Source: Candidatus Woesearchaeota archaeon (GTDB taxonomy: Archaea; Nanobdellota; Nanobdellia; Pacearchaeales; GW2011-AR1). From it: a stretch of 48,594 bases of DNA. Below the pieces are notes generated by a model that was given only the letters and a program-made list of their open reading frames with translations, searched no databases and was not told where the DNA came from. Positions 2,970 through 34,320 of this stretch are shown here, piece by piece. Position 1 is the stretch's first letter, and each line of letters begins with the position of its first letter. The DNA lies in the NCBI GenBank assembly GCA_964653605.1, contig CAZZGW010000001.1:1-48594 (forward strand). The letters run 5' to 3'. Made by a program: the position numbers and the translations under genes.

Positions 2970-3081
2970 ATAAAAATCCTACAAATTTAAGGTATAAAAA
3001 GGTATTTCTAATTATAAAAGACAAAACCCAAGTAAGAACCTCAAAAGAAAACTTTATATACTCATAATTAGTTCAGATTTT

Positions 3082-3193
3082 AAGACAGCCATAGTAATTT
3101 GGTAACACCTGTTCCCTTTCCGAACACAGAAGTTAAGCTTATTACGTTGTTACTGGTACTGCCCGGAAAGGCGGAAACGTTTCAAGCTGTCTT
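3082..3193 (+). rRNA. rrf: 5S ribosomal RNA
   Basis: Contains CCCTTTCCGAACACAGAAGTTAAGC (conserved 5S loop C/helix III region). Terminal helix AAGACAGC...GCTGTCTT. Followed by a T-rich tract. Confidence 0.85.
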
Positions 3194-3216
3194 ATTTTCT
3201 TTTTTTAAGAATTTAA

Positions 3217-24418: not shown

Positions 24419-24967
24419 TTATTTTTTCTTTTTTTCAATTTTATTTAATTTATCCTGAACGTGATTAAACAATGTTGCTTGGATTATTGGTTTGTGATTT
24501 GCTGGGTGTATTTGCCCATTAAATTTTATTTTCCCAATGTATGCAAAATTCTTTAGTATTTTTTTGAGCCCGTTAACTGAAAGGTTGTGTTTCTCTGCAA
24601 CCTTTCTTAAATTCATCTCTTGTTTTAAGAACTCTTCAAATATTTCTTCTACTTCTAGATAATTTTGGGCGGGTATAAGCTCTGAAAGATTATTTCTTCT
24701 ATATCCAAAAGGAACTCTCGACATATGCTTCCCTTGAGAAGATTTTTTTATCATTCCTGATTTTTGAACATCTCCCCTAAACTGGGCGTACTTTCTATAG
24801 GGTTCTATTGCATTTTGATCTATTGGAAGCTGAATATACTTATCTAATTCTTCCGGATCATTTGGAGCAAAAGTGTAACATACGCTACAAAAGTATAATC
24901 CTCTCTTTGATTTATTTTCTTCCGAATCGTGTCCACATTTTTCACATTTCATTTTAAAGATTATCAA
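24419..24967 (-). CDS. Zinc-ribbon plus serine-recombinase 'Recombinase' DNA-binding domain protein lacking the resolvase catalytic domain
   Basis: N-terminus CEKCGH...CSVC, then VPFGYRRNN...LEVEEIFEEF....LRKVAEKHNLSVNGLKKILKNFAYIGKIKFNGQIHPANHKPIIQATLFNHVQ. No catalytic Ser domain. Confidence 0.6.
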   Translation of the reverse strand: MIIFKMKCEKCGHDSEENKSKRGLYFCSVCYTFAPNDPEELDKYIQLPIDQNAIEPYRKYAQFRGDVQKSGMIKKSSQGKHMSRVPFGYRRNNLSELIPAQNYLEVEEIFEEFLKQEMNLRKVAEKHNLSVNGLKKILKNFAYIGKIKFNGQIHPANHKPIIQATLFNHVQDKLNKIEKKKK

Positions 24968-25781
24968 TAGGGCTCTTAACCTCCATTAATCTTTGTTTGG
25001 AAATATGGGTATATAATTCTGTTGTAGATATTGAAGCATGTCCTAGTAATTCTTGTATGACTCTTAAATCAGTCCCTCCATCTAATAAATGTGTTGCAAA
25101 AGAGTGCCTTAATGTGTGTGGATGAACTTCTTTTTTTATCTCCGCTCTTACTGTTGCCTTTTGAATCATCTTCTGTAAATTTCTCGAGGATAATCTTCCT
25201 TTTGGCCCATTAAATAAATATTCTTGATTTTTTTCTTTTTGCCTTCTTGTTTGTTTCTCTAAATCTTTTCTTAAAAATTCTGGAATATTGAAGATACGAT
25301 CTTTTTTTCCCTTCCCTTGTTTAACGTATCCAATCTCTTCTTCAAAATTTAAATCATTCACTTTAAGATTAATGAGTTCTGATACTCTAAAGCCGCAGGC
25401 ATAAAGCATACTCGTCATTAGGATAGATTTTCTTGTATCAAAACTATCAAGAAGCTTCTTTATTTCGTCCCTCGTTAAGACTGTTGGAATTCTTTTCTCT
25501 CTTTTAGGTCTTTTAATATCCATTGTTATATCTTTTTTTAAAATAGAGGTGTAAGCATATTTTATTGCAGAAAGAAAAAGGATTACTGAGCTAGAAGAAG
25601 AGTTTTCCATCCTATCTGCAACGTACATTTTAACATCATCTTCCATAATTTCTTTCGGTTTTTTATTTGCCTTGTTTAAGAGTTTCTCATTTGCACTAAT
25701 GTAATTTTTAATAGTATGCTCTGAGCTTTTAGAAATCTTTAACTCAACCTCAAGTTTTTTTAGAAATTCCTCCTTATTCAT
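24954..25781 (-). CDS. xerA: Tyrosine recombinase, XerA/XerCD-like
   Basis: ACGFRVSEL (Arg I), HPHTLRHSFATHLL (HxxR), LLGHASISTTELYTH (His, Tyr). ATG at 25781 (MNKEEF) preferred over the TTG at 25856. 14-nt overlap with the downstream ORF. Confidence 0.85.
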   Translation of the reverse strand: MNKEEFLKKLEVELKISKSSEHTIKNYISANEKLLNKANKKPKEIMEDDVKMYVADRMENSSSSSVILFLSAIKYAYTSILKKDITMDIKRPKREKRIPTVLTRDEIKKLLDSFDTRKSILMTSMLYACGFRVSELINLKVNDLNFEEEIGYVKQGKGKKDRIFNIPEFLRKDLEKQTRRQKEKNQEYLFNGPKGRLSSRNLQKMIQKATVRAEIKKEVHPHTLRHSFATHLLDGGTDLRVIQELLGHASISTTELYTHISKQRLMEVKSPIDNL

Positions 25782-26141
25782 TACTAGATTATGCGAACCT
25801 AGTTTAAAAAAGTTTTTTTCAGGTTTTATCTTCAAAAAGCTGTTTGTTGCTCTCAAACCTTGTTGCTTTCATCCCTAATTTCTTCGCTGGAGGAATATTC
25901 CCCCTCCTGGTTGTCTATAAACAGCGTTTCCCCCAGGCTTAGAAGGGGTTTTCTTAAGAGTTATCTTGTATATTCTTAATTCGGTTTTTTAATCCCAACA
26001 TGGCAAGAGACAATTAGTTCATCAAATCTATTATAAAGTTTTTTGTCATCAAAGACTTCTCTGAAAGATGTCCTTGATCTGAAAGAATTAACAAATATTG
26101 AGTGCCATAATCCTTAAAAAACCATAAAATCTTGAATTTTC

Positions 26142-27383: not shown

Positions 27384-27677
27384 TTAGGGGTATACTGGTT
27401 TATCTCTAAGCCACCTGGTTGTTAAAAATATTAAAAATGCACAAATAATTGTTATAAAAACAGATGCCCAAACACTTGTTGCATTTGGATTTGTGGGATG
27501 GGTCAACCAAACAATCAATGCTTTTGAAAGATCAAAAATTGTTTCACGCCAGGTAAATGCAATTGTAAACCCTAAAGTGAAGATTATAAACATCCTCATT
27601 TGCTTTCTAAATTCTTGTCTATATTGATTTCCAAGATAGAAATAATTTCTAATTCTCCTCTTTTTTATTGGGCTCAT
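27384..27677 (-). CDS. Small 2-TM membrane protein (DUF5654-like)
   Basis: EFRKQMRMFIIFTLGFTIAFTWRETIFDLSKAL... plus a second TM. 97 aa. Confidence 0.5.
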   Translation of the reverse strand: MSPIKKRRIRNYFYLGNQYRQEFRKQMRMFIIFTLGFTIAFTWRETIFDLSKALIVWLTHPTNPNATSVWASVFITIICAFLIFLTTRWLRDKPVYP

Positions 27678-27783
27678 TTCAATGAAAAAGCGTATTCATG
27701 TTTTTATATTTTTGGTTAAATTTTTTTTATTTTCATAATCTTTTTTTGAGGTAAATTTTGTTAATTCATAGTTAATCCCAGGG

Positions 27784-27810
27784 GTTGTGCACTTAGGTTA
27801 GGTAAGTTTT
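27784..27810 (+). repeat. Copy 3 of the CACTTAGGTTAGGT motif
   Basis: gttGTGCACTTAGGTTAGGTAAGtttt. Confidence 0.7.
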
Positions 27811-27834
27811 ATAACTAAAAAAGATTCCTTTATT

Positions 27835-28064
27835 TATGTGTCTAAAAGGGGTCGACAAACACCTAAAAAACAGGTGTTTAAGCTGTCCAAACAGCCTGTT
27901 TTTTCGTTTTATCGACGGTAAAATAATGGGTGTTTGTTTGCTGTCCAAAGGAAATAAAGGGGTTGTTGTGGGGTGTTTATGCCTGTTTGTTGCTGTTTAG
28001 AGGTGTTTAAACAGGCTGTTTTTGAATCTTTTTTTTGACAAACAGCTGTTTGTGGGATAGTCTT
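27835..28064. promoter_or_regulatory. Iteron-like cluster of AAACAG(N0-1)CTGTTT palindromes and CTGTCCAAA / GTGTTTA words, bracketed by an 11-bp inverted repeat
   Basis: TATGTGTCTAA (27836) / TTAGACACATA (28054). AAACAGCCTGTTT, AAACAGGCTGTTT and the perfect 16-mer ACAAACAGCTGTTTGT (28038-28053). AAACACCT-n7-AGGTGTTT. Confidence 0.6.
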
Positions 28065-28170
28065 AGACACATAATTTTGCATTAAATCGGGTTCTTTTTT
28101 TGGGGTCTTTTTTGTGTTTTTCCCGAGGATAAAGAGAAAAGTTTTTAAACCTCTTTTCCTAGATATTAAT

Positions 28171-28800
28171 ATGTTTTGGAATTCTAGAAAAAAGAAAGAG
28201 ATTGACCACATAAAAGAAGATACTAAAAGAGGATTTGAAAGTGTAAAAAAGGATATAACTTCTGTAAGTGGTTGGATTAAACACCTTGATTCTGAAAAAG
28301 AAATTCAAAAAAAGGACATAAAAGAGATAAAAGATATTTTATCGTCAATTAAAGAGGATTTAGAAGGCGTAAAAAACGTTGTTTCTGTGATGAATAATCT
28401 GAAATCCAAACAGCTGTTTAAAACACCCTCCCAGGTGTTGGAAAAACAGACAGCTGTTTATGCTGTCCAAACACCTGTTCAAACAGCTGTCCAAACACCA
28501 AATTTAGAGTATTTTTCAATAACTGAAAGAGCAATACTCTGGATATTACTAAACAGTGATATGAAGCTTAGTTATGATGATTTAGCAGCAATGTTAGGAA
28601 AAGAGAGATCTACAATAAGAGGCCAAATAAACTCAATAAAACAGAAAAGTGAGACACTAATAGAAGAAGTAATCGAAAAGAATGGGAAAAAAAGGGTGTT
28701 TATACCTGAGAAAATCAAGGAAAATATGCTAAAAAAGTCAAAAGTGAGAGTTAAAGATAAGAAAAAACCTGAGAAAAAGGGTAAAATTAGCGAATATTAG
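28171..28800 (+). CDS. Coiled-coil / Q-T-rich linker / winged-helix DNA-binding protein
   Basis: ATG at 28171 preferred over the GTG at 28114. Coiled coil KEIQKKDIKEIKDILSSIKEDLEGVKN. Linker QTAVYAVQTPVQTAVQTP. wHTH ITERAILWILLNSDMKLSYDDLAAMLGKERSTIRGQINSIKQK. Confidence 0.7.
   Translation: MFWNSRKKKEIDHIKEDTKRGFESVKKDITSVSGWIKHLDSEKEIQKKDIKEIKDILSSIKEDLEGVKNVVSVMNNLKSKQLFKTPSQVLEKQTAVYAVQTPVQTAVQTPNLEYFSITERAILWILLNSDMKLSYDDLAAMLGKERSTIRGQINSIKQKSETLIEEVIEKNGKKRVFIPEKIKENMLKKSKVRVKDKKKPEKKGKISEY
28405..28500 (+). repeat. Intragenic second iteron-like cluster (same words as 27835-28064)
   Basis: AAACAGCTGTTT (28408), AACACCctcccAGGTGTT, acagaCAGCTGTTTatGCTGTCCAAACACCTGTTCAAACAGCTGTCCAAACACC. 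Confidence 0.6.
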
Positions 28801-29064: not shown

Positions 29065-29766
29065 TTAAAGGTCCCTTAACTGTAAAATTGTGTGTAGAGA
29101 AGCTATTTTTTTTAGATTTTTAGAGATATTTAACTGAATGCTCTTATTGTTTATCTTTGTTTTCTCGATGGGAATGCCCTTTTTTATCAATCTGCCTATA
29201 TAATCCCTTATGGAACTTTCTGAGAGATTTATTCTTTCAGATATAGCTTTATAGTCTGAAAACCCCTTTTCTTCCTCTAATTGGTACAGTGTGGAAAATA
29301 CTAGGATCTCTTGATTTGTCAGTCTTTTAAATTTTAACCTAATTTCTTTCTTAATGTTATCTAAAGATTCAAGAATTTCAACAGCATTATTAATGGTGTA
29401 ATCCCCTTGATTATGCGAACCTTTATCTGTCTGTTGGTGTGTCTGTCTGTCTGTCTGTTTGTCTGTTGGAACCCCTTGATTTCCTTTGGAAATACCCTTA
29501 TTTTGGTACTTTAAGGGTTTATATTGGTAATTATGTGTCGAAGGATGTGTCTGATGTGTTGGATTTACCTGTCTGTTTGTCTGTTGGGCTATTTCAGACA
29601 TTTGAGTTTTTTTTTCGTTGATTTCATTAAATTTTTTAAATAGCTCTGCTAGATCAATTAAGCTTTCCCTAATTTCAGAAACGTTATTTTTTAGGGAATT
29701 CAATTCCTCTTGGATAGATTCCATATCAGATTTGACTTTAGAAAAAGCTTCTTTTACATGGTCCAT
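29065..29766 (-). CDS. Coiled-coil / Q-T-rich linker / winged-helix DNA-binding protein (paralog-like to 28171..28800)
   Basis: Coiled coil VKSDMESIQEELNSLKNNVSEIRESL. Linker QQTNRQVNPTHQTHPSTH...PTDKQTDRQTHQQTDK. wHTH LTNQEILVFSTLYQLEEEKGFSDYKAISERINLSESSIRDYIGRLIKKG. Confidence 0.7.
   Translation of the reverse strand: MDHVKEAFSKVKSDMESIQEELNSLKNNVSEIRESLIDLAELFKKFNEINEKKTQMSEIAQQTNRQVNPTHQTHPSTHNYQYKPLKYQNKGISKGNQGVPTDKQTDRQTHQQTDKGSHNQGDYTINNAVEILESLDNIKKEIRLKFKRLTNQEILVFSTLYQLEEEKGFSDYKAISERINLSESSIRDYIGRLIKKGIPIEKTKINNKSIQLNISKNLKKIASLHTILQLRDL
29426..29590 (-). repeat. Intragenic GTCTGT / CAACAGACAAACAGACAG repeats in the linker-coding region
   Basis: tctgtctgttggtgtgtctgtctgtctgtctgtttgtctgttgg (29426-29469) and cctgtctgtttgtctgttggg (29569-29589). 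ATGTGTC occurs twice and GGAAATACCCT once in between. Confidence 0.6.
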
Positions 29767-29830: not shown

Positions 29831-30100
29831 CTAATCCTGTTTCTGGGAATAAACCTTGTAAATTTTGCTGTTTAGCTTCCACCGACTTCTTTTGAGATAA
29901 GGTGTCCCTTTGGGGTTTTTGTTTATCTCAACGATAAAATTCTTTTTCTTCAGTTCTTTTAGTAGTTTTTTGGTAAACTCTTCATCCCGTATTATCTCTT
30001 GGGCAATTTTGTTTGTAAACTCTGGTTGGGGATTTATTGAATATAAATAAGCTAAAATTTGCTCAGAAATCTTCTCTTTTTTCTTATCAGAAATTTTCAT
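29831..30100 (-). CDS. Small winged-helix transcription-regulator-like protein
   Basis: 89 aa: ISEQILAYLYSINPQPEFTNKIAQEIIRDEEFTKKLLKELKKKNFIVEI (HTH plus wing). Confidence 0.55.
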   Translation of the reverse strand: MKISDKKKEKISEQILAYLYSINPQPEFTNKIAQEIIRDEEFTKKLLKELKKKNFIVEINKNPKGTPYLKRSRWKLNSKIYKVYSQKQD

Positions 30101-31120: not shown

Positions 31121-31411
<291 letters not shown>

Positions 31412-31528: not shown

Positions 31529-32743
31529 ATGGAACTAGAAATTGATGAGATATTTGATTCATTTGATAAGAATAGGATTTTCAAAGATAAAAATATTTTG
31601 CAAGCAAACCACAAACCAAATGAAATTTTACATCGGGGAGATCAAATTAAACAGATTGCTTCTATACTTGCTCCTGTTCTTAGGGGGGAAAAGACAAGCA
31701 ATTTGTTTCTTTATGGTAAAACAGGAACCGGAAAAACATTATCTATCAATTATGTTCGAGATGAATTGATGAAGCGTCTGAAAAAAGACACAGATTTTAA
31801 ATTAAGAATAGAATATTTAAATTGCAAATTAAAGAAAGTTTCAGATACAGAATATAGGATTCTTGCTGAGCTTATTAAGAAGCTTGGGGGAGAGGTTCCT
31901 TCTACTGGTTTGCCAACTCAGGCTGTTTATTCAAAGTTCATAGAAACAATCGATTCCGAGAAACAATTGGTTGTATTAATCTTAGATGAAATTGATCAAA
32001 CGGTTAAAAAAATATCTAACGATTTTCTTTACAATCTTACAAGATTAAATTCAGAATTATCAAAAACACAACTATGTGTTGTGGGAATAAGTAATAATTT
32101 GACTTTTTTAGATGAGCTGGATCCAAGGGTTCGTAGTTCTTTGAGTGAAGAGGAGATTGTGTTTCCCCCCTATAACGCATTGCAACTTCAAGAGATTTTA
32201 AAGAATAGATCTTTAGAGGCTTTTAAAGAGGGGGTTGTCCAGGAGGGAGTAATTGCAAAATGTGCTGCTTTTGCGGCGAGGGAGCATGGAGATGCTCGTA
32301 GGGCATTGGATTTGCTGAGGATTGCGGGTGAACTAGCAGAAAGGGAGGGCGCTGATAAGATTCATTTGAAATTCATTGATGGGGCAAATAATAAAATAGA
32401 GCGGGATAAGATTCTGGATGTCATAACTTCAGAACCAAAACAATTTCAGCTTGTTTTGAAATCAATCATTGCCCTTTCAGAGAAAATAAAAAACGGGGAG
32501 CCTCTTTTTACAGGGGATGTATATAATCATTATCAAGACATTTGTTCTAATAATAATGTAGAAGTTTTAACTCAGAGGCGAGTATCTGATATCATTCAGG
32601 AGTTTGATATGCTTGGGATAATTAATGTGCGTGTTATTTCGAAGGGCCGTGGAGGAAGAATGAGGGAAATTAAATTAGCAATAAGTAAAGATATTATCAA
32701 GAAAGCCAAAGAGATTATTGAGCATTCTTTAGATTATGGGTGA
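31529..32743 (+). CDS. cdc6: Orc1/Cdc6 replication initiator
   Basis: LHRGDQIKQIASIL, Walker A LYGKTGTGKT, Walker B VLILDEID, sensor GDARRALDLLR, C-terminal wHTH. Confidence 0.95.
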   Translation: MELEIDEIFDSFDKNRIFKDKNILQANHKPNEILHRGDQIKQIASILAPVLRGEKTSNLFLYGKTGTGKTLSINYVRDELMKRLKKDTDFKLRIEYLNCKLKKVSDTEYRILAELIKKLGGEVPSTGLPTQAVYSKFIETIDSEKQLVVLILDEIDQTVKKISNDFLYNLTRLNSELSKTQLCVVGISNNLTFLDELDPRVRSSLSEEEIVFPPYNALQLQEILKNRSLEAFKEGVVQEGVIAKCAAFAAREHGDARRALDLLRIAGELAEREGADKIHLKFIDGANNKIERDKILDVITSEPKQFQLVLKSIIALSEKIKNGEPLFTGDVYNHYQDICSNNNVEVLTQRRVSDIIQEFDMLGIINVRVISKGRGGRMREIKLAISKDIIKKAKEIIEHSLDYG

Positions 32744-32748
32744 TTTGA

Positions 32749-34320
32749 ATGGAAAATGAATTGTTAAAATTCTTTTTTGAGAAGGGCCTTTTGGTTGATA
32801 AAGAGGTTTTAGATTTGTTTCAAGATGTGCACGATTCCGAGAGCATTAAGTTTATTATTGAAAAAATAAAAAATACCACAAATCAGAGTGTAATAACAAA
32901 AACAACTCTTAGTGAAAATAGGGAGAAAGTAAATAGGGTTTTTTTGGAACTCCCTCAAGAAAATCAAAAAAAGTTAGAAAGGTTTAAGATTAATTTGGGA
33001 TTGAGCATAGAAATTTCTAAAGAGGTTTTGGTTGGGAATGCAAATGTTTCCGGAGGAGTTTCTCCTGGAGAAGGCTTTGGGGGTGTTGTGAATGTAACAG
33101 AGAGACCAAGCGAGATTGTCAAGAAAATTGAGGTTAAAAATTTTGTAAATTACTTTAAAAATAGATTTATTTCTCTTAGGGGGATATTGCAGGAACATTC
33201 TGAGCTGAATAGTTTGGTTTCCATAAATAAAATTTCTGAGGGGGCACAAGGAATTTCTTTAATTGGGATGATCCGTTCTAAATCAGTAACTAAAAATAAA
33301 AATATTATCTTGGAGATAGAGGACTTAACCGGAAAAATAAAGGTTTTGATAAACCAGAATAAACCTGGGCTGTACAAATTAGCTGAAGAAATTACTTTGG
33401 ATGCTGTTTTGGGTTTTAAGGGGTCCGGAAATAAAGAGATTTTTTTTGTTAATGAGGTTGTTTTTCCAGAAGCAATGCTTCCTGAACGTAAAAGATCAAA
33501 TTTTGATGAGTCTGCCCTTTTTATTGGGGATTTGCATTATGGAAGTAAGAGGTTTTTGAAAGAGGGTTTTGAAAAGTTTATAGATTATCTGTCTGGGAAA
33601 GTTCCAGGCACAGAAAAAGAAGTGGAGAAGATAAGATATTTGTTTTTGACCGGAGATCTCGTTACAGGGGTTGGAAATTATCCAAACCAGGAGCCAGATT
33701 TGGAGATTGTTGATTTGGAGGAGCAGTTTTTGGGTTTAACAGAGTTTTTGAAAAGAATTCCAGAAAGAATAAAGATAATAATTTCCCCGGGAAATCATGA
33801 TTGTGTTAGGTTGATGGAGCCCCAACCTCTTCTTGATGAAAAATACGCTTGGCCCTTGTATGATCTCAAGAATGCGGTTTTAACTGAAAATCCGGGTAGG
33901 GTAAATATTGGGGGGAATAATTCTTTTGTTGGTTATGATGTTTTAACATACCATGGGTTTTCTTACTTTTTTTATGCGCGGGAAATTGTTCCTTTGATTG
34001 AGAAGAATGCGGTTAACTCTCCAGATGATATTATGAAATTTTTATTAAAAAATAGGCACCTTGCCCCTACCCACAAATCTACTCAGTATTTTCCTTTAGA
34101 GAAGGACCCCTTAGTCATAAGGAAGGTCCCAGATATCCTTGTTTCTTCACATACTCACAAGTGTGCAACAAGTTATTATAATAATGTTTTGGTCATTTCA
34201 ACTTCTTGTTGGGAGGCAATGACCCCCTACCAAGAAAAGTTTGGAAATGAACCAGACCATTGTAAGGTTCCCATGTTAAATTTAAAAACAAGAGCATTAA
34301 AAGTTCTTGACTTTGAGTAA
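32749..34320 (+). CDS. polB: DNA polymerase II (PolD) small subunit DP1
   Basis: OB-fold region plus calcineurin-like phosphoesterase motifs FIGDLHYGS, LTGDLV.G, SPGNHD, HTH. Adjacent to the DP2 and cdc6 genes. Confidence 0.9.
   Translation: MENELLKFFFEKGLLVDKEVLDLFQDVHDSESIKFIIEKIKNTTNQSVITKTTLSENREKVNRVFLELPQENQKKLERFKINLGLSIEISKEVLVGNANVSGGVSPGEGFGGVVNVTERPSEIVKKIEVKNFVNYFKNRFISLRGILQEHSELNSLVSINKISEGAQGISLIGMIRSKSVTKNKNIILEIEDLTGKIKVLINQNKPGLYKLAEEITLDAVLGFKGSGNKEIFFVNEVVFPEAMLPERKRSNFDESALFIGDLHYGSKRFLKEGFEKFIDYLSGKVPGTEKEVEKIRYLFLTGDLVTGVGNYPNQEPDLEIVDLEEQFLGLTEFLKRIPERIKIIISPGNHDCVRLMEPQPLLDEKYAWPLYDLKNAVLTENPGRVNIGGNNSFVGYDVLTYHGFSYFFYAREIVPLIEKNAVNSPDDIMKFLLKNRHLAPTHKSTQYFPLEKDPLVIRKVPDILVSSHTHKCATSYYNNVLVISTSCWEAMTPYQEKFGNEPDHCKVPMLNLKTRALKVLDFE

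Follow-up and report, generated by a model that had tools for sequence, protein, structure and literature searches.

We analysed a window of 48,594 nucleotides (the whole stretch of DNA under study) from an AT-rich DPANN archaeon, centred our attention on the gene at 28171–28800, and found two clusters of CTGTTT/AAACAG half-sites, one upstream of this gene (27854–28053) and one within its coding sequence (CDS; 28405–28506). The features at the locus are as follows.

28171–28800, plus strand: gene for a 209-aa protein with a coiled-coil helix, a disordered segment and a winged helix-turn-helix (wHTH)
27834–27845, plus strand: left arm of an inverted repeat, TTATGTGTCTAA, containing the word ATGTGTC/GACACAT
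27854–28053, no strand: upstream array of [GC]TGTTT/AAACA[GC] half-sites, intergenic, conserved in orthologous loci
27857–27879: AAACACCT-n7-AGGTGTTT, in the upstream array
27868–27879, 27889–27901 (AAACAGCCTGTTT), 28009–28021 (AAACAGGCTGTTT) and 28040–28051: palindromes of the upstream array
27907–27918, plus strand: second conserved word, TTTTATCGACGG (TTATCGWCG), inside the upstream array
28003–28021: near-invariant core of the upstream array, GTGTTTAAACAGGCTGTTT
28029–28053, no strand: T8 run (28029–28036) followed by the last palindrome, ACAAACAGCTGTTTGT (28038–28053)
28063–28074, plus strand: right arm of the inverted repeat, TTAGACACATAA
28133–28149, plus strand: inferred promoter, a purine-rich BRE-like stretch and the TATA box TTTTTAAA (28142–28149)
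28279–28284, plus strand: isolated AAACAC half-site in the CDS (K37-H38)
28337–28346, plus strand: TTTTATCGTC in the CDS (L57-S58), a word common to the upstream array
28405–28506, no strand: intragenic array of about 10–12 half-sites, codons 79–112
28408–28419: AAACAGCTGTTT, in the intragenic array
28461–28498: GCTGTCCAAACACCTGTTCAAACAGCTGTCCAAACACC, in the intragenic array, a stretch of CDS that encodes QTAVYAVQTPVQTAVQTP

The 28171 protein consists of a coiled-coil helix (residues 3–77), the segment KQTxVxxVQTxVQTxVQTP (78–112) and a wHTH domain (117–187). AlphaFold gave residues 78–109 a pLDDT below 50, which indicates disorder, and the wHTH a pLDDT of 80–91. The fold search placed this confident domain among MarR/MepR/Fur/Lrs14-type regulators, with matches that were generic MarR/Fur/Lrs14-like wHTH folds (E ≥ 7e-4), and a sequence search against solved structures found no relative (best E 0.18). 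Across the Pfam, NCBIfam, PDB sequence and fold searches, the protein was recognizable as a generic single wHTH plus a coiled coil alone. The 75-residue helix is predicted to be suited to oligomerization.

Scanning the window for AAACA[GC]/[GC]TGTTT half-sites gave 14 in the 250 bp at the upstream cluster (27844–28094) and 10 in the 250 bp at the intragenic one (28407–28657), against a window mean of 0.51 per 250 bp and a next-highest peak of 3. For longer words, AAACAGNCTGTTT occurred twice with 0.01 expected, AAACAGCTGTTT with at most one mismatch occurred five times with 0.24 expected (four of the five inside the clusters), and all four copies of CTGTCCAAA in the window lay within the two clusters. 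The words cited in the first-pass annotation, which had been made from the sequence alone, were all found where it had placed them, and at frequencies far above background. In the upstream array, direct repeats start at 27973, 27983, 27993 and 28003, a step of exactly 10 bp, and at least three word classes are present (sTGTTT, TTATCGWCG and GACACAT). Copies related to TTTTATCGACGG lie 14–18 bp upstream of the TATA box in orthologs and also within the CDS; in this window the TATA-proximal copy of the TTATCGWCG word is degenerate (CCCGAGG, 28122–28128). The intragenic array lies 235–335 bp into the coding sequence. Each locus carries one upstream array, and the window contains no other.

Both clusters have been kept as DNA in at least 170 related uncultivated archaea. 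Among species-level genomes, the upstream array was present in 77 of 77 orthologous loci with enough flank, whose upstream 400 bp held a mean of 9.3 half-sites (minimum 4) against a background of 0.77. Its consensus architecture was also kept across 78 orthologous loci, and the last palindrome stood at a fixed distance of 37 bp from the core start in 62 of 73. Metagenomic matches to the 19-nt core with enough flank sat 0–500 bp upstream of an ortholog in 94 of 112 cases; the remainder were mostly single chance palindromes in unrelated GC-rich contigs. The comparison of orthologous loci proposed in the first-pass annotation therefore found the cluster in every locus examined, which contradicts the notion, also raised there, of a decayed pseudogene copy of the linker-coding region. 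Neither of the two outcomes named there as telling against an iteron- or operator-like array, background word frequency and pseudogene decay, was observed, and the array organization is supported. A search of IMG/VR found neither the core motif nor the 28171 protein, and the locus is core chromosomal; these results speak against a plasmid or viral origin, and on the IMG/VR result we rejected an episomal replication origin. Our literature search found no paper on the motif in such a context, nor on the gene cluster.

Another reading makes the intergenic cluster a decaying duplicate of linker-coding DNA, or else a MITE-like insertion with the inverted repeat as its ends. The vocabulary common to the cluster and the CDS, in roughly similar word order (AAACACCT .. 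TTTTATCGWC .. array), and the 12-bp terminal inverted repeat of this window would fit such an event. However, the array occurs in all orthologous loci at a protein identity of only about 70%, with a constant internal spacing and with its promoter phasing retained. Local alignment of the upstream and CDS consensus scored 37 against 29.4 ± 4.7 for block-shuffled controls (p ~0.09), so that the comparison shows common words and does not show collinearity, and we rejected an ancient origin of the intergenic cluster by duplication of the CDS. The inverted repeat itself, by which the cluster had been described as bracketed, is real in this window and fails as a defining feature: its arms occur as a pair in 3 of 78 orthologous loci and are missing as such from the other 75. 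On that count we rejected it as a closing stem or a transposon end. The array is single-copy in each locus, with no other copy in the window or in IMG/VR, unlike a MITE. In some loci the position of the right arm is the distal end of an element resembling an origin recognition box (ORB; TTTCCAnnGGAAA..GGG..CTTCGACACAT). We consider a duplicate or MITE-like insertion extremely improbable.

We examined codon usage across the intragenic array. The (VQTx)3 peptide was invariant, and its synonymous sites were frozen. Threonine was encoded by ACA in 371 of 390 codons and by ACG in 19, and never by ACT (0/390), which makes up 38% at other conserved threonine codons of the same gene. All 235 glutamine codons were CAA, and the V96 codon was GTT in 78 of 80. 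The x codons switch amino acid (GCT/GGT/CCT) while keeping T as the third base in about 97%, and codon 82 varies among GTG, CTG, CCG and GCG with G fixed at the third position. Third-position identity was 0.81–0.90 over codons 81–110 versus about 0.65 elsewhere, and amino-acid changes within the array occurred only where the DNA word is degenerate. The two outlying words of the CDS behaved similarly: H38, in the isolated AAACAC half-site, is CAC in 68 of 76 orthologs despite the AT-rich genome, and S58, in TTTTATCGTC, uses the rare codon TCG in 71 of 76. The repeat units of the CDS also undergo within-genome homogenization, which adds to uniformity inside each genome.

These sequence data point to selection on the DNA of the intragenic segment. 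Because it is invariant both in protein and at synonymous sites, the segment is a DNA element embedded in the CDS rather than a free linker with a chance likeness to the array, and the earlier label of linker is not borne out. The locus is a remarkably clear example of protein-level freedom being overridden by a function of the DNA: 30 residues are invariant in at least 170 species, yet predicted to be disordered, and their silent positions stay fixed although some amino acids vary. The neighbouring gene at 29065–29766 shows the same frozen-codon pattern around an ORB-like element. Annotators would take both segments for conserved protein motifs, and the evidence indicates that they are DNA sites instead.

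We further asked whether the words act in duplex DNA or in RNA. Same-orientation half-sites were spaced by 10, 20 and 30 bp, together with a 13-bp offset series. An alternative is that selection acts on RNA, through a structured intergenic ncRNA closed by the inverted repeat and/or through an intragenic mRNA structure or antisense target. In this window, a TATA-like TTTATAA (about 27808), an inverted-repeat arm at either end and the T8 run would be consistent with such an RNA, and the palindromes could in principle pair. Nevertheless, the palindrome spacers of 0–1 nt are sterically impossible for an RNA hairpin. The base after AAACAG was C in 58 cases and G in 41, as expected from the 58% C background, so that no pairing preference is evident at the palindrome centres. 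No covariation was seen between codons 82 and 86, the sequence being conserved rather than covarying, and Rfam gave no match at gathering thresholds for the whole window, nor at E up to 10 for 27600–28250. The inverted-repeat bracket is confined to the 3 of 78 loci mentioned above, and no conserved promoter lies upstream of the array. An RNA-level constraint is therefore very improbable in our judgement.

The spacing between the array and the promoter gave a further line of evidence. We assigned promoter function by the archaeal promoter consensus; the promoter block CGAAAAACAAAAnATTTTTAAA is conserved in 78 loci, and the TATA box lies 21 nt before the ATG, a spacing that implies an mRNA with no leader or almost none. 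Core-to-TATA distances from 100 loci fell into classes near 115, 125, 137, 147 and 156 bp with empty gaps between them, and the Rayleigh statistic (nR2) was 31 at a period of 10.5–11 bp, a value reached by 0 of 2000 jittered nulls, the loci being phylogenetically related and thus not fully independent samples. What varies is a spacer between array and TATA, which is free of repeats and changes in sequence from locus to locus. The TATA box and the start site are clear of half-sites, and the nearest palindrome is about 90 bp upstream. Given the 10-bp phasing, the palindrome centres and the helical quantization of the array-to-TATA spacing, we consider a protein bound to duplex DNA a better explanation than RNA structure. 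The first-pass annotation had likened the clusters to iterons, centromere-like sites or autoregulatory operators; of these three functions, the helical quantization favours a transcriptional operator or upstream activating sequence (UAS).

As the best explanation, held with about even confidence, we propose that the clusters are arrays at which a sequence-specific protein binds double-stranded DNA, and that they govern the promoter of the 28171–28800 gene, likely through autoregulation by DNA looping. The upstream cluster is probably an operator/UAS array and the intragenic cluster an auxiliary array, through which the wHTH gene would regulate itself. The recognition unit would be the 6-bp half-site [GC]TGTTT, which occurs in two arrangements: direct repeats in 10-bp phase, and inverted pairs that abut (AAACAG|CTGTTT and CTGTTT|AAACAG). 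The upstream array would end in a fixed module, made up of the core GsTGTTTAAACAGGCTGTTT, a T-run and the last palindrome 37 bp from the core start, that is held on a constant helix face relative to the TATA box. In the intragenic array of about 12 half-sites, the required DNA words would dictate the (VQTx)3 peptide. The most economical candidate for the binder is the 28171 product, which would dimerize or oligomerize through its coiled coil and carry a MarR-like winged helix on a flexible tether, and AAACAGCTGTTT and CTGTTTAAACAG are candidate duplex sites for its dimer. Both the recognition helix and the half-site are invariant in all loci retrieved. Dimers on the two arrays may link one to the other, so that the promoter is looped out and autoregulation becomes cooperative; the xerA and recombinase promoters carry weaker single sites. 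What the data show is conservation, selection at the DNA level, phasing by 10 bp and quantization of the distance to the TATA box in helical turns; the identity of the binder, loop formation and the direction of regulation we infer.

Several observations weigh against autoregulation. The TATA box and start site, where archaeal repressors usually act, are free of half-sites, and more than 25 half-sites are far above what simple autoregulation needs and more typical of centromeres, iterons and origin-control regions. Other candidate binders are also at hand. The arrays may be bound by the coiled-coil/wHTH protein of 29065–29766, by the 89-aa wHTH-like protein of 29831–30100 or by Orc1/Cdc6, with the 28171 gene as a target rather than an autoregulator. 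Three wHTH-type genes (28171–28800, 29065–29766 and 29831–30100) lie within 2 kb in all loci, and the GACACAT/ATGTGTC word, one of the array's three or more word classes, recurs in the linker of the neighbouring 29065 gene. On the other side, half-site arrays are always found directly ahead of the 28171 gene and within it, and sites at a regulator's own gene would be the commonest arrangement. We regard a different binder as unlikely. Profile–profile alignment of the 29065 and 28171 proteins covered only 30 HTH columns (90% probability), so that their architecture is common while common ancestry beyond the HTH is not demonstrated, and we did not treat the two genes as paralogs.

We then considered the neighbourhood of the arrays, which includes the following elements.

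29468–29494, minus strand: ORB-like element ATTTCCAAAGGAAATcaaGGGGTT in the coiled-coil/wHTH gene 29065–29766, with no synonymous variation in 78 orthologs
31123–31149 and 31384–31409: ORB-like elements (TTTCCAnnGGAAA plus G-string) flanking the AT-rich DNA unwinding element (DUE) of oriC

The first-pass annotation had put the arrays 3 kb from oriC and in a recombinase-bearing accessory region. Its first statement was borne out: inverted ORB-like elements surround an AT-rich stretch at 31121–31410, just upstream of cdc6, and in every locus of sufficient length the array lies about 3.3 kb from cdc6/oriC. The second was not, since the array, the 28171 gene and the genes through to cdc6/PolD are syntenic in 80 of 80 loci, gene content varies only in the left flank, and the recombinase is the housekeeping archaeal XerA. 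The ORB consensus is a TTTCCAnnGGAAA dyad plus G-string, set at origins in inverted pairs around an AT-rich DUE beside orc1/cdc6. The array itself was rejected as an Orc1/Cdc6 origin, because its words are unlike ORBs and a complete ORB/DUE/ORB origin is present at 31121–31410. The ORB-like element in the 29065 gene is frozen in about 76 of 80 loci, and in about six loci an ORB-like element stands at the right edge of the upstream array.

This setting keeps an origin-linked or centromere-like role plausible. The arrays may nucleate a multi-protein architectural, replication-control or centromere-like complex beside oriC, serving tethering, segregation or initiation control, with gene control as a by-product as in parC/ParR or tubC/TubR. 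The constant distance to oriC, the ORB-like elements inside the neighbouring gene and, in a few loci, next to the array, the large number of phased sites ahead of a small wHTH gene, and the nearby XerA and PRC-barrel (cell-division-type) genes are all consistent with such a complex. However, the conserved neighbours within about 5 kb include no partner NTPase of the ParA/SegA, ParM or TubZ type, the half-site differs from the ORB, the origin beside cdc6 is already complete, and a pure segregation site has no need of helical quantization relative to a TATA box. As the primary function of the arrays, we find it rather unlikely; if true, it would be a new wiring of replication initiation to gene expression in archaea. 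A possible extension, which we put forward tentatively, is that the ~3.6-kb stretch from array to cdc6 forms one extended origin-proximal nucleoprotein domain, in which the linkers of the two coiled-coil/wHTH proteins are passenger translations of cis-acting DNA (the half-site array in one gene, an Orc1/Cdc6-type ORB and ACAGAC repeats in the other) and both proteins and Orc1/Cdc6 assemble on each other's genes. Such a domain would couple initiation to expression of both proteins, or serve as a chromosome tether or centromere, in a major lineage of the DPANN archaea.

We compared the autoregulatory reading and its rivals with known systems. In lac and gal looping, auxiliary operators lie inside coding sequence (lacO2 in lacZ and galOI in galE), and an oligomeric regulator bridges sites around the promoter. 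The present locus likewise has sites upstream of the promoter and within the transcribed gene, with helical-face-dependent spacing of integral turns. It differs in that each operator is an array of 10–14 half-sites instead of a single site, the promoter is of the archaeal TATA/BRE type, the intragenic site fixes 30 codons over about 100 bp, and binder and looping are proposed rather than observed. Type II and III plasmid centromeres double as operators, as in parC/ParR, tubC/TubR (TubR being a winged-helix protein) and the archaeal pNOB8 AspA. Here too, phased 10–12 bp repeats with many cooperative sites lie directly upstream of the gene for a small DNA-binding adaptor, the putative binding protein, but without a partner NTPase within about 5 kb in the conserved block and in chromosomal core rather than on a plasmid or virus; no sequence relation of the 28171 protein to the ParR, TubR or AspA families was detectable.

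Plasmid iterons flank the rep gene, as in P1 incC/incA and F incB/incC. The locus resembles them in its helix-phased tandem repeats and in repeat clusters on either side of the start of the presumed binder's gene. In contrast to P1 and F, the protein has a coiled coil and a single MarR-like wHTH instead of a WH1-WH2 Rep initiator, no episome or mobile element is involved, one cluster is inside the CDS, and no DUE adjoins the array, the origin being 3 kb away. In Bacillus subtilis, parS lies inside spo0J, and "duons" are coding sequences that also carry factor-binding sites. The intragenic array is similarly embedded in the coding sequence of an origin-proximal gene for a DNA-binding protein, with constrained codon choice; unlike parS and duons, it makes a 30-residue, predicted-disordered peptide invariant across a large clade. 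Archaeal ORBs are bound by Orc1/Cdc6 (PMC4010727). The array is origin-proximal and repeated with dyad elements as ORBs are, but its sTGTTT/AAACAs half-site does not fit the TTTCCAnnGGAAA plus G-string pattern, which was found at 31121–31410 and as the single element inside the neighbouring gene.

For the uncultivated DPANN archaea, gene regulation and cell-cycle control are almost unexplored. In a block invariably beside the replication origin, the locus gives a precisely defined and testable cis-element grammar: half-sites of 6 bp in 10-bp phase, a core module of fixed length (37 bp) and a distance to the TATA box set in helical turns. GC skew tracked gene orientation and did not locate the origin on this scale. 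A further site of the window lies near xerA.

25834–25845, minus strand: one degenerate site, AAACAGCTTTTT, ~20 nt ahead of the xerA BRE/TATA

In the orthologous loci, half-sites were enriched about 3-fold upstream of xerA and at recombinase promoters and were at background upstream of other neighbours, and full composite sites were found upstream of xerA in 4 of 29.

A scan of the window for the half-site AAACA[GC]/[GC]TGTTT gave two peaks, 27844-28094 with 14 copies per 250 bp and 28407-28657 with 10, compared with a window mean of 0.51 and a next-highest value of 3. The first peak is an intergenic cluster (the upstream array, 27854-28053) and the second lies inside a plus-strand winged helix-turn-helix (wHTH) gene at 28171-28800, hereafter the 28171 gene (the intragenic array, 28405-28506, codons 79-112). 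The 13-mer AAACAGsCTGTTT (s, G or C) occurs twice in the window against 0.01 copies expected from shuffles, and AAACAGCTGTTT with at most one mismatch has five matches against 0.24 expected, four of them inside the clusters. These positions, densities and expected counts confirm the palindrome clusters described in the first-pass annotation, whose listed words were all found where it had placed them; the inverted repeat said to bracket the intergenic cluster is real as well, and measures 12 bp (TTATGTGTCTAA, 27834-27845; TTAGACACATAA, 28063-28074). Phased half-sites in the same orientation start at 27973, 27983, 27993 and 28003.

The upstream array is conserved. Among the 77 loci whose flanking sequence is long enough, the half-site count in the 400 bp preceding a 28171 ortholog averages 9.3 and never falls below 4, compared with 0.77 per 400 bp in the remainder of those loci, which disposes of both doubts that the annotation had raised against itself, namely that the words might be unconserved or at background frequency. 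Alignment of 78 upstream regions gave the following common architecture, in order.

Conserved 20-mer
Palindrome, then TTTTATCGACG
Second palindrome
Phased sTGTTT repeats
Near-invariant core, GsTGTTTAAACAGGCTGTTT
T-run
AcAAACAGCTGTTT
Variable spacer
CGWCG
BRE/TATA block, AAAACAAAAnATTTTTAAA
ATG, about 22 nt after the BRE/TATA block

This TATA-to-ATG distance suggests a leaderless mRNA for the 28171 gene. When metagenome contigs were searched with a 19-nt core, 94 of the 112 matches with enough flanking sequence lay 0-500 bp upstream of a 28171 ortholog; the others were mostly lone palindromes on unrelated contigs of 45-57% G+C.

The grammar of the array is that of a protein predicted to bind one face of duplex DNA. 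Same-orientation half-sites are spaced by 10, 20 and 30 bp, with an additional 13-bp offset series, and sTGTTT outnumbers AAACAs on the plus strand (484 vs 255). Most of the palindromes have a spacer of 0 or 1 nt and are therefore unable to form hairpins. The two halves vary independently at the central base: of the half-sites that follow AAACAG, 58 are CTGTTT and 41 are GTGTTT, in line with the 58% C seen there overall, and there is thus no preference for perfect complementarity. No covariation was found between codons 82 and 86, a possible mRNA pair, and an Rfam search gave no match for the array.

Across 100 loci, the core-to-TATA distances fell into classes near 115, 124-127, 134-141, 143-149 and 154-158 bp, and the gaps between classes were empty. 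Their Rayleigh power was highest for periods of 10.5-11 bp (nR2 = 31), and 2000 nulls, made by jittering every distance by half a turn, never attained this value; as the loci are phylogenetically related, the spacing classes are only partly independent of one another. In 62 of 73 loci the last palindrome lies a constant 37 bp from the core, and the quantised part is the spacer from the last palindrome to TATA (78, 87-90, 97-103, 106-112 and 117-120 bp). Repeat-unit slippage does not account for the classes, since the spacer lacks repeats and its sequence varies from locus to locus. Conservation of helical face is a classical signature of proteins bound at a remote site that touch others at the promoter or at another site. 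The helical spacing is the strongest argument for regarding the array as a putative transcriptional control element of the 28171 gene.

The 28171 gene product (209 residues) has more than 3000 database relatives, with identities of 68-87% among the 120 listed, and is encoded at 177 loci in GTDB species genomes. The most invariant stretch in the protein alignment is KQTxVxxVQTxVQTxVQTP. In the AlphaFold model, residues 78-109 are disordered, with pLDDT values under 50, and the flanking N-terminal helix (3-77) and wHTH (117-187) reach values as high as 91. When the codons of 81 orthologs were aligned, frozen silent sites became apparent in the intragenic array. Its five Thr codons are ACA in 371 of 390 cases, ACG in 19 and never ACT, which accounts for 38% at three other conserved Thr positions of the gene. 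Gln100, Gln104 and Gln108 are CAA in 235/235, compared with 49/77 for Q152; V96 is GTT in 78/80, and K84 and K92 are AAA without exception. Codons with variable amino acids read GCT, GGT or CCT (Ala, Gly or Pro; third base T in about 97%), and codon 82 reads GTG, CTG, CCG or GCG (Val, Leu, Pro or Ala) with an invariant third-base G; replacements are therefore confined to the degenerate positions of the word [GC][GC]TGTT, and silent positions are under constraint. Mean third-position identity is 0.81-0.90 in codons 81-110 and about 0.65 elsewhere. The coding unit GTT-CAA-ACA differs by one base from the intergenic consensus GTTTAAACA, whose base at that position would create an in-frame TAA stop. 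Further words are embedded at K37-H38 (AAACAC; His is CAC in 68/76) and at L57-S58 (TTATCGTC, also present in the upstream array; Ser is the rare codon TCG in 71/76). With frozen silent sites in a segment modelled as disordered, what had been taken for a protein linker is a DNA element within the coding sequence.

The between-species identity of the intragenic array requires purifying selection on nucleotides. At orthologous codons 98-109, minor variants are often common to the three 12-bp units of one genome (GCT GTC three times, or ACG twice; e.g. L006, L014, L018, L019 and L026), which indicates some concerted evolution of the units, by conversion or slippage, on top of that selection. At the sequence level, the locus is a real and strongly conserved dual-use element, coding and apparently cis-acting.

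The first-pass annotation had placed the arrays in an accessory region; because gene order is conserved and the recombinase is archaeal XerA, they belong instead to the core chromosome. The tyrosine recombinase at 24954-25856 scored above the NCBI archaeal XerA equivalog cut-off. In 80 loci, every sufficiently long contig kept the order array, 28171 gene (+), second coiled-coil/wHTH gene (-; 29065-29766 in the window), 89-aa wHTH-like gene (-), 153-aa gene (-), PRC-barrel gene (-), oriC, cdc6 (+) and putative PolD small-subunit ORF (+), and gene content varied only in the left flank, from xerA to the array. The window is archaeal with 32.7% G+C, and the names given to related contigs (Woesearchaeota, Pacearchaeota or Nanoarchaeota) all denote DPANN groups. 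The Orc1/Cdc6 gene (31529-32743) is directly followed by an ORF (32749-34320) for a putative PolD small subunit and directly preceded by a canonical-looking oriC (31121-31410), in which a very AT-rich stretch with an (ATT)n run lies between two inverted ORB-like elements; a mini-ORB-like TTTTCCATAAGAAAT occurs at 31283-31297. The elements are termed ORB-like by comparison with the ORB consensus. The elements at the origin and in the neighbouring gene are as follows.

31123-31149, ORB-like element with C-string, ACCCCCCC..TTTCTTCTGGAAA, inverted relative to that at 31384-31409
31384-31409, ORB-like element TTTCCATAGGAAAT..GGGG, inverted relative to that at 31123-31149
29468-29494, minus-strand sense, ORB-like element ATTTCCAnnGGAAATnnnGGGGTT encoding ISTGNxGV, within gene 29065-29766
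29427-29469 and 29570-29586, minus-strand sense, ACAGAC/CAAACAGAC repeats encoding (TDRQ)n, beside the embedded ORB-like element
29533-29559, plus strand ATGTGTC (coding sense GACACAT), three P/S-T-H units, TCGACACAT/CCAACACAT, in the linker of 29065-29766

Archaeal ORBs have been reviewed (PMC4010727). The embedded ORB-like element matches the one upstream of cdc6 and is present in about 76 of 80 loci. Among 78 orthologs its codons lack synonymous variation (TCC 78/78, GGA 76/76, GGG 77/78, GTT 72/72, CCA 62/62), and amino-acid changes fall solely in the dyad centre and spacer. The ACAGAC/CAAACAGAC repeats are likewise free of synonymous variation (GAC 71/71, AGA 63/63, ACA 78/78), unlike the wHTH domain of the same gene, which varies freely. 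The GACACAT/ATGTGTC word also forms inverted-repeat arms around the array in the window and two other loci, and in some loci (e.g. L018, L064) follows ORB-like elements at the array edge.

The main rival to transcriptional control is an origin-linked or centromere-like role of the arrays, with which the very many sites, their fixed position near the origin and the nearby ORB-like elements are consistent. The locus resembles the centromere/operator arrays parC/ParR and tubC/TubR, and iterons flanking a rep gene. One defining feature each of the iteron/Rep, par/tub, ORB, MITE and known-RNA classes was tested and found lacking, and these classes were rejected; for par/tub, the search for a partner NTPase covered the conserved neighbours within about 5 kb. 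Of the iteron, centromere and operator likenesses first proposed, the operator array is thus the favoured one. The literature searched contained no account of the motif or of this gene cluster. We favour an operator array with an intragenic partner, of unusually clear sequence grammar and with an intriguing link to the replication origin.

The most economical candidate for the binder is the 28171 gene's own product; two other wHTH-type proteins near the locus and Orc1/Cdc6 are further candidates. Its wHTH fold has only generic likeness to MarR/MepR, Fur/PerR and archaeal Lrs14-type regulators (best E 7e-4), and no solved structure related by sequence was found. For binder identity, looping and the sign of regulation, we infer the following. 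Coiled-coil dimers or oligomers of the 28171 protein would sit on phased half-sites, the flexible coil-wHTH tether fitting direct, head-to-head and tail-to-tail arrangements. Bridging between complexes on the two arrays, upstream (-340 to -95) and intragenic (+235 to +335), may then place the promoter and the gene's 5' half in a loop, and the outcome would be cooperative feedback control. An intragenic auxiliary operator is also found in lac/gal looping, which the proposed loop would resemble.

The 150 bp upstream of xerA and of a recombinase-domain gene contain 0.83 and 0.71 half-sites, respectively (about threefold enriched), and most other neighbours are at background (0.1-0.26); the exceptions are cdc6, with a mild excess (0.47), and the divergent DUF5654 gene, which has the array itself as its upstream region. 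Full composite sites were found at 4 of 29 xerA loci and 2 of 21 recombinase-domain-gene loci. In the window, the site near xerA is as follows.

25834-25845, AAACAGCTTTTT, about 20 nt upstream of the xerA BRE/TATA

These counts suggest that the array-binding factor may also act at the xerA and recombinase promoters, as a small local regulon. Single or composite sTGTTT/AAACAs sites lie just upstream of BRE/TATA of these two genes in a minority of loci (e.g. L005, L008, L016, L046 and L090).

Several minor observations were made. The word TTATCGWCG, which probably marks a second binding specificity, has three conserved positions: within the array, beside the promoter and within the coding sequence.

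27907-27918, TTATCGWCG word in the array
28337-28346, TTATCGWCG word in the coding sequence
14-18 bp upstream of TATA in orthologs, TTATCGWCG word

The only clear array lacking the gene is on a 1275-bp metagenome contig (L155), which carries the full array, the 20-mer and GACACAT words, but has no ortholog of the wHTH gene in the following 1 kb, perhaps through rearrangement or misassembly. A conserved element of about 22 nt, TTGT(G/T)CACTTAGGTTAGsTTAGT, has three plus-strand copies in the window (26854, 27314 and 27790) and 158 copies of constant orientation upstream of the 28171 gene over 80 loci. Among copies with a minus-strand ORF within 400 nt, it lies mostly 60-120 nt upstream of the start codons of various small genes encoded on the minus strand in the variable xerA-array region; it may represent a promoter-proximal site common to these genes or mark the boundary of a cassette. 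Elsewhere in the window, a 127-nt Rfam tRNA match on the minus strand (2751-2877), not called by ARAGORN, is probably an intron-containing archaeal tRNA, and a 5S rRNA gene stands alone at 3081-3195.
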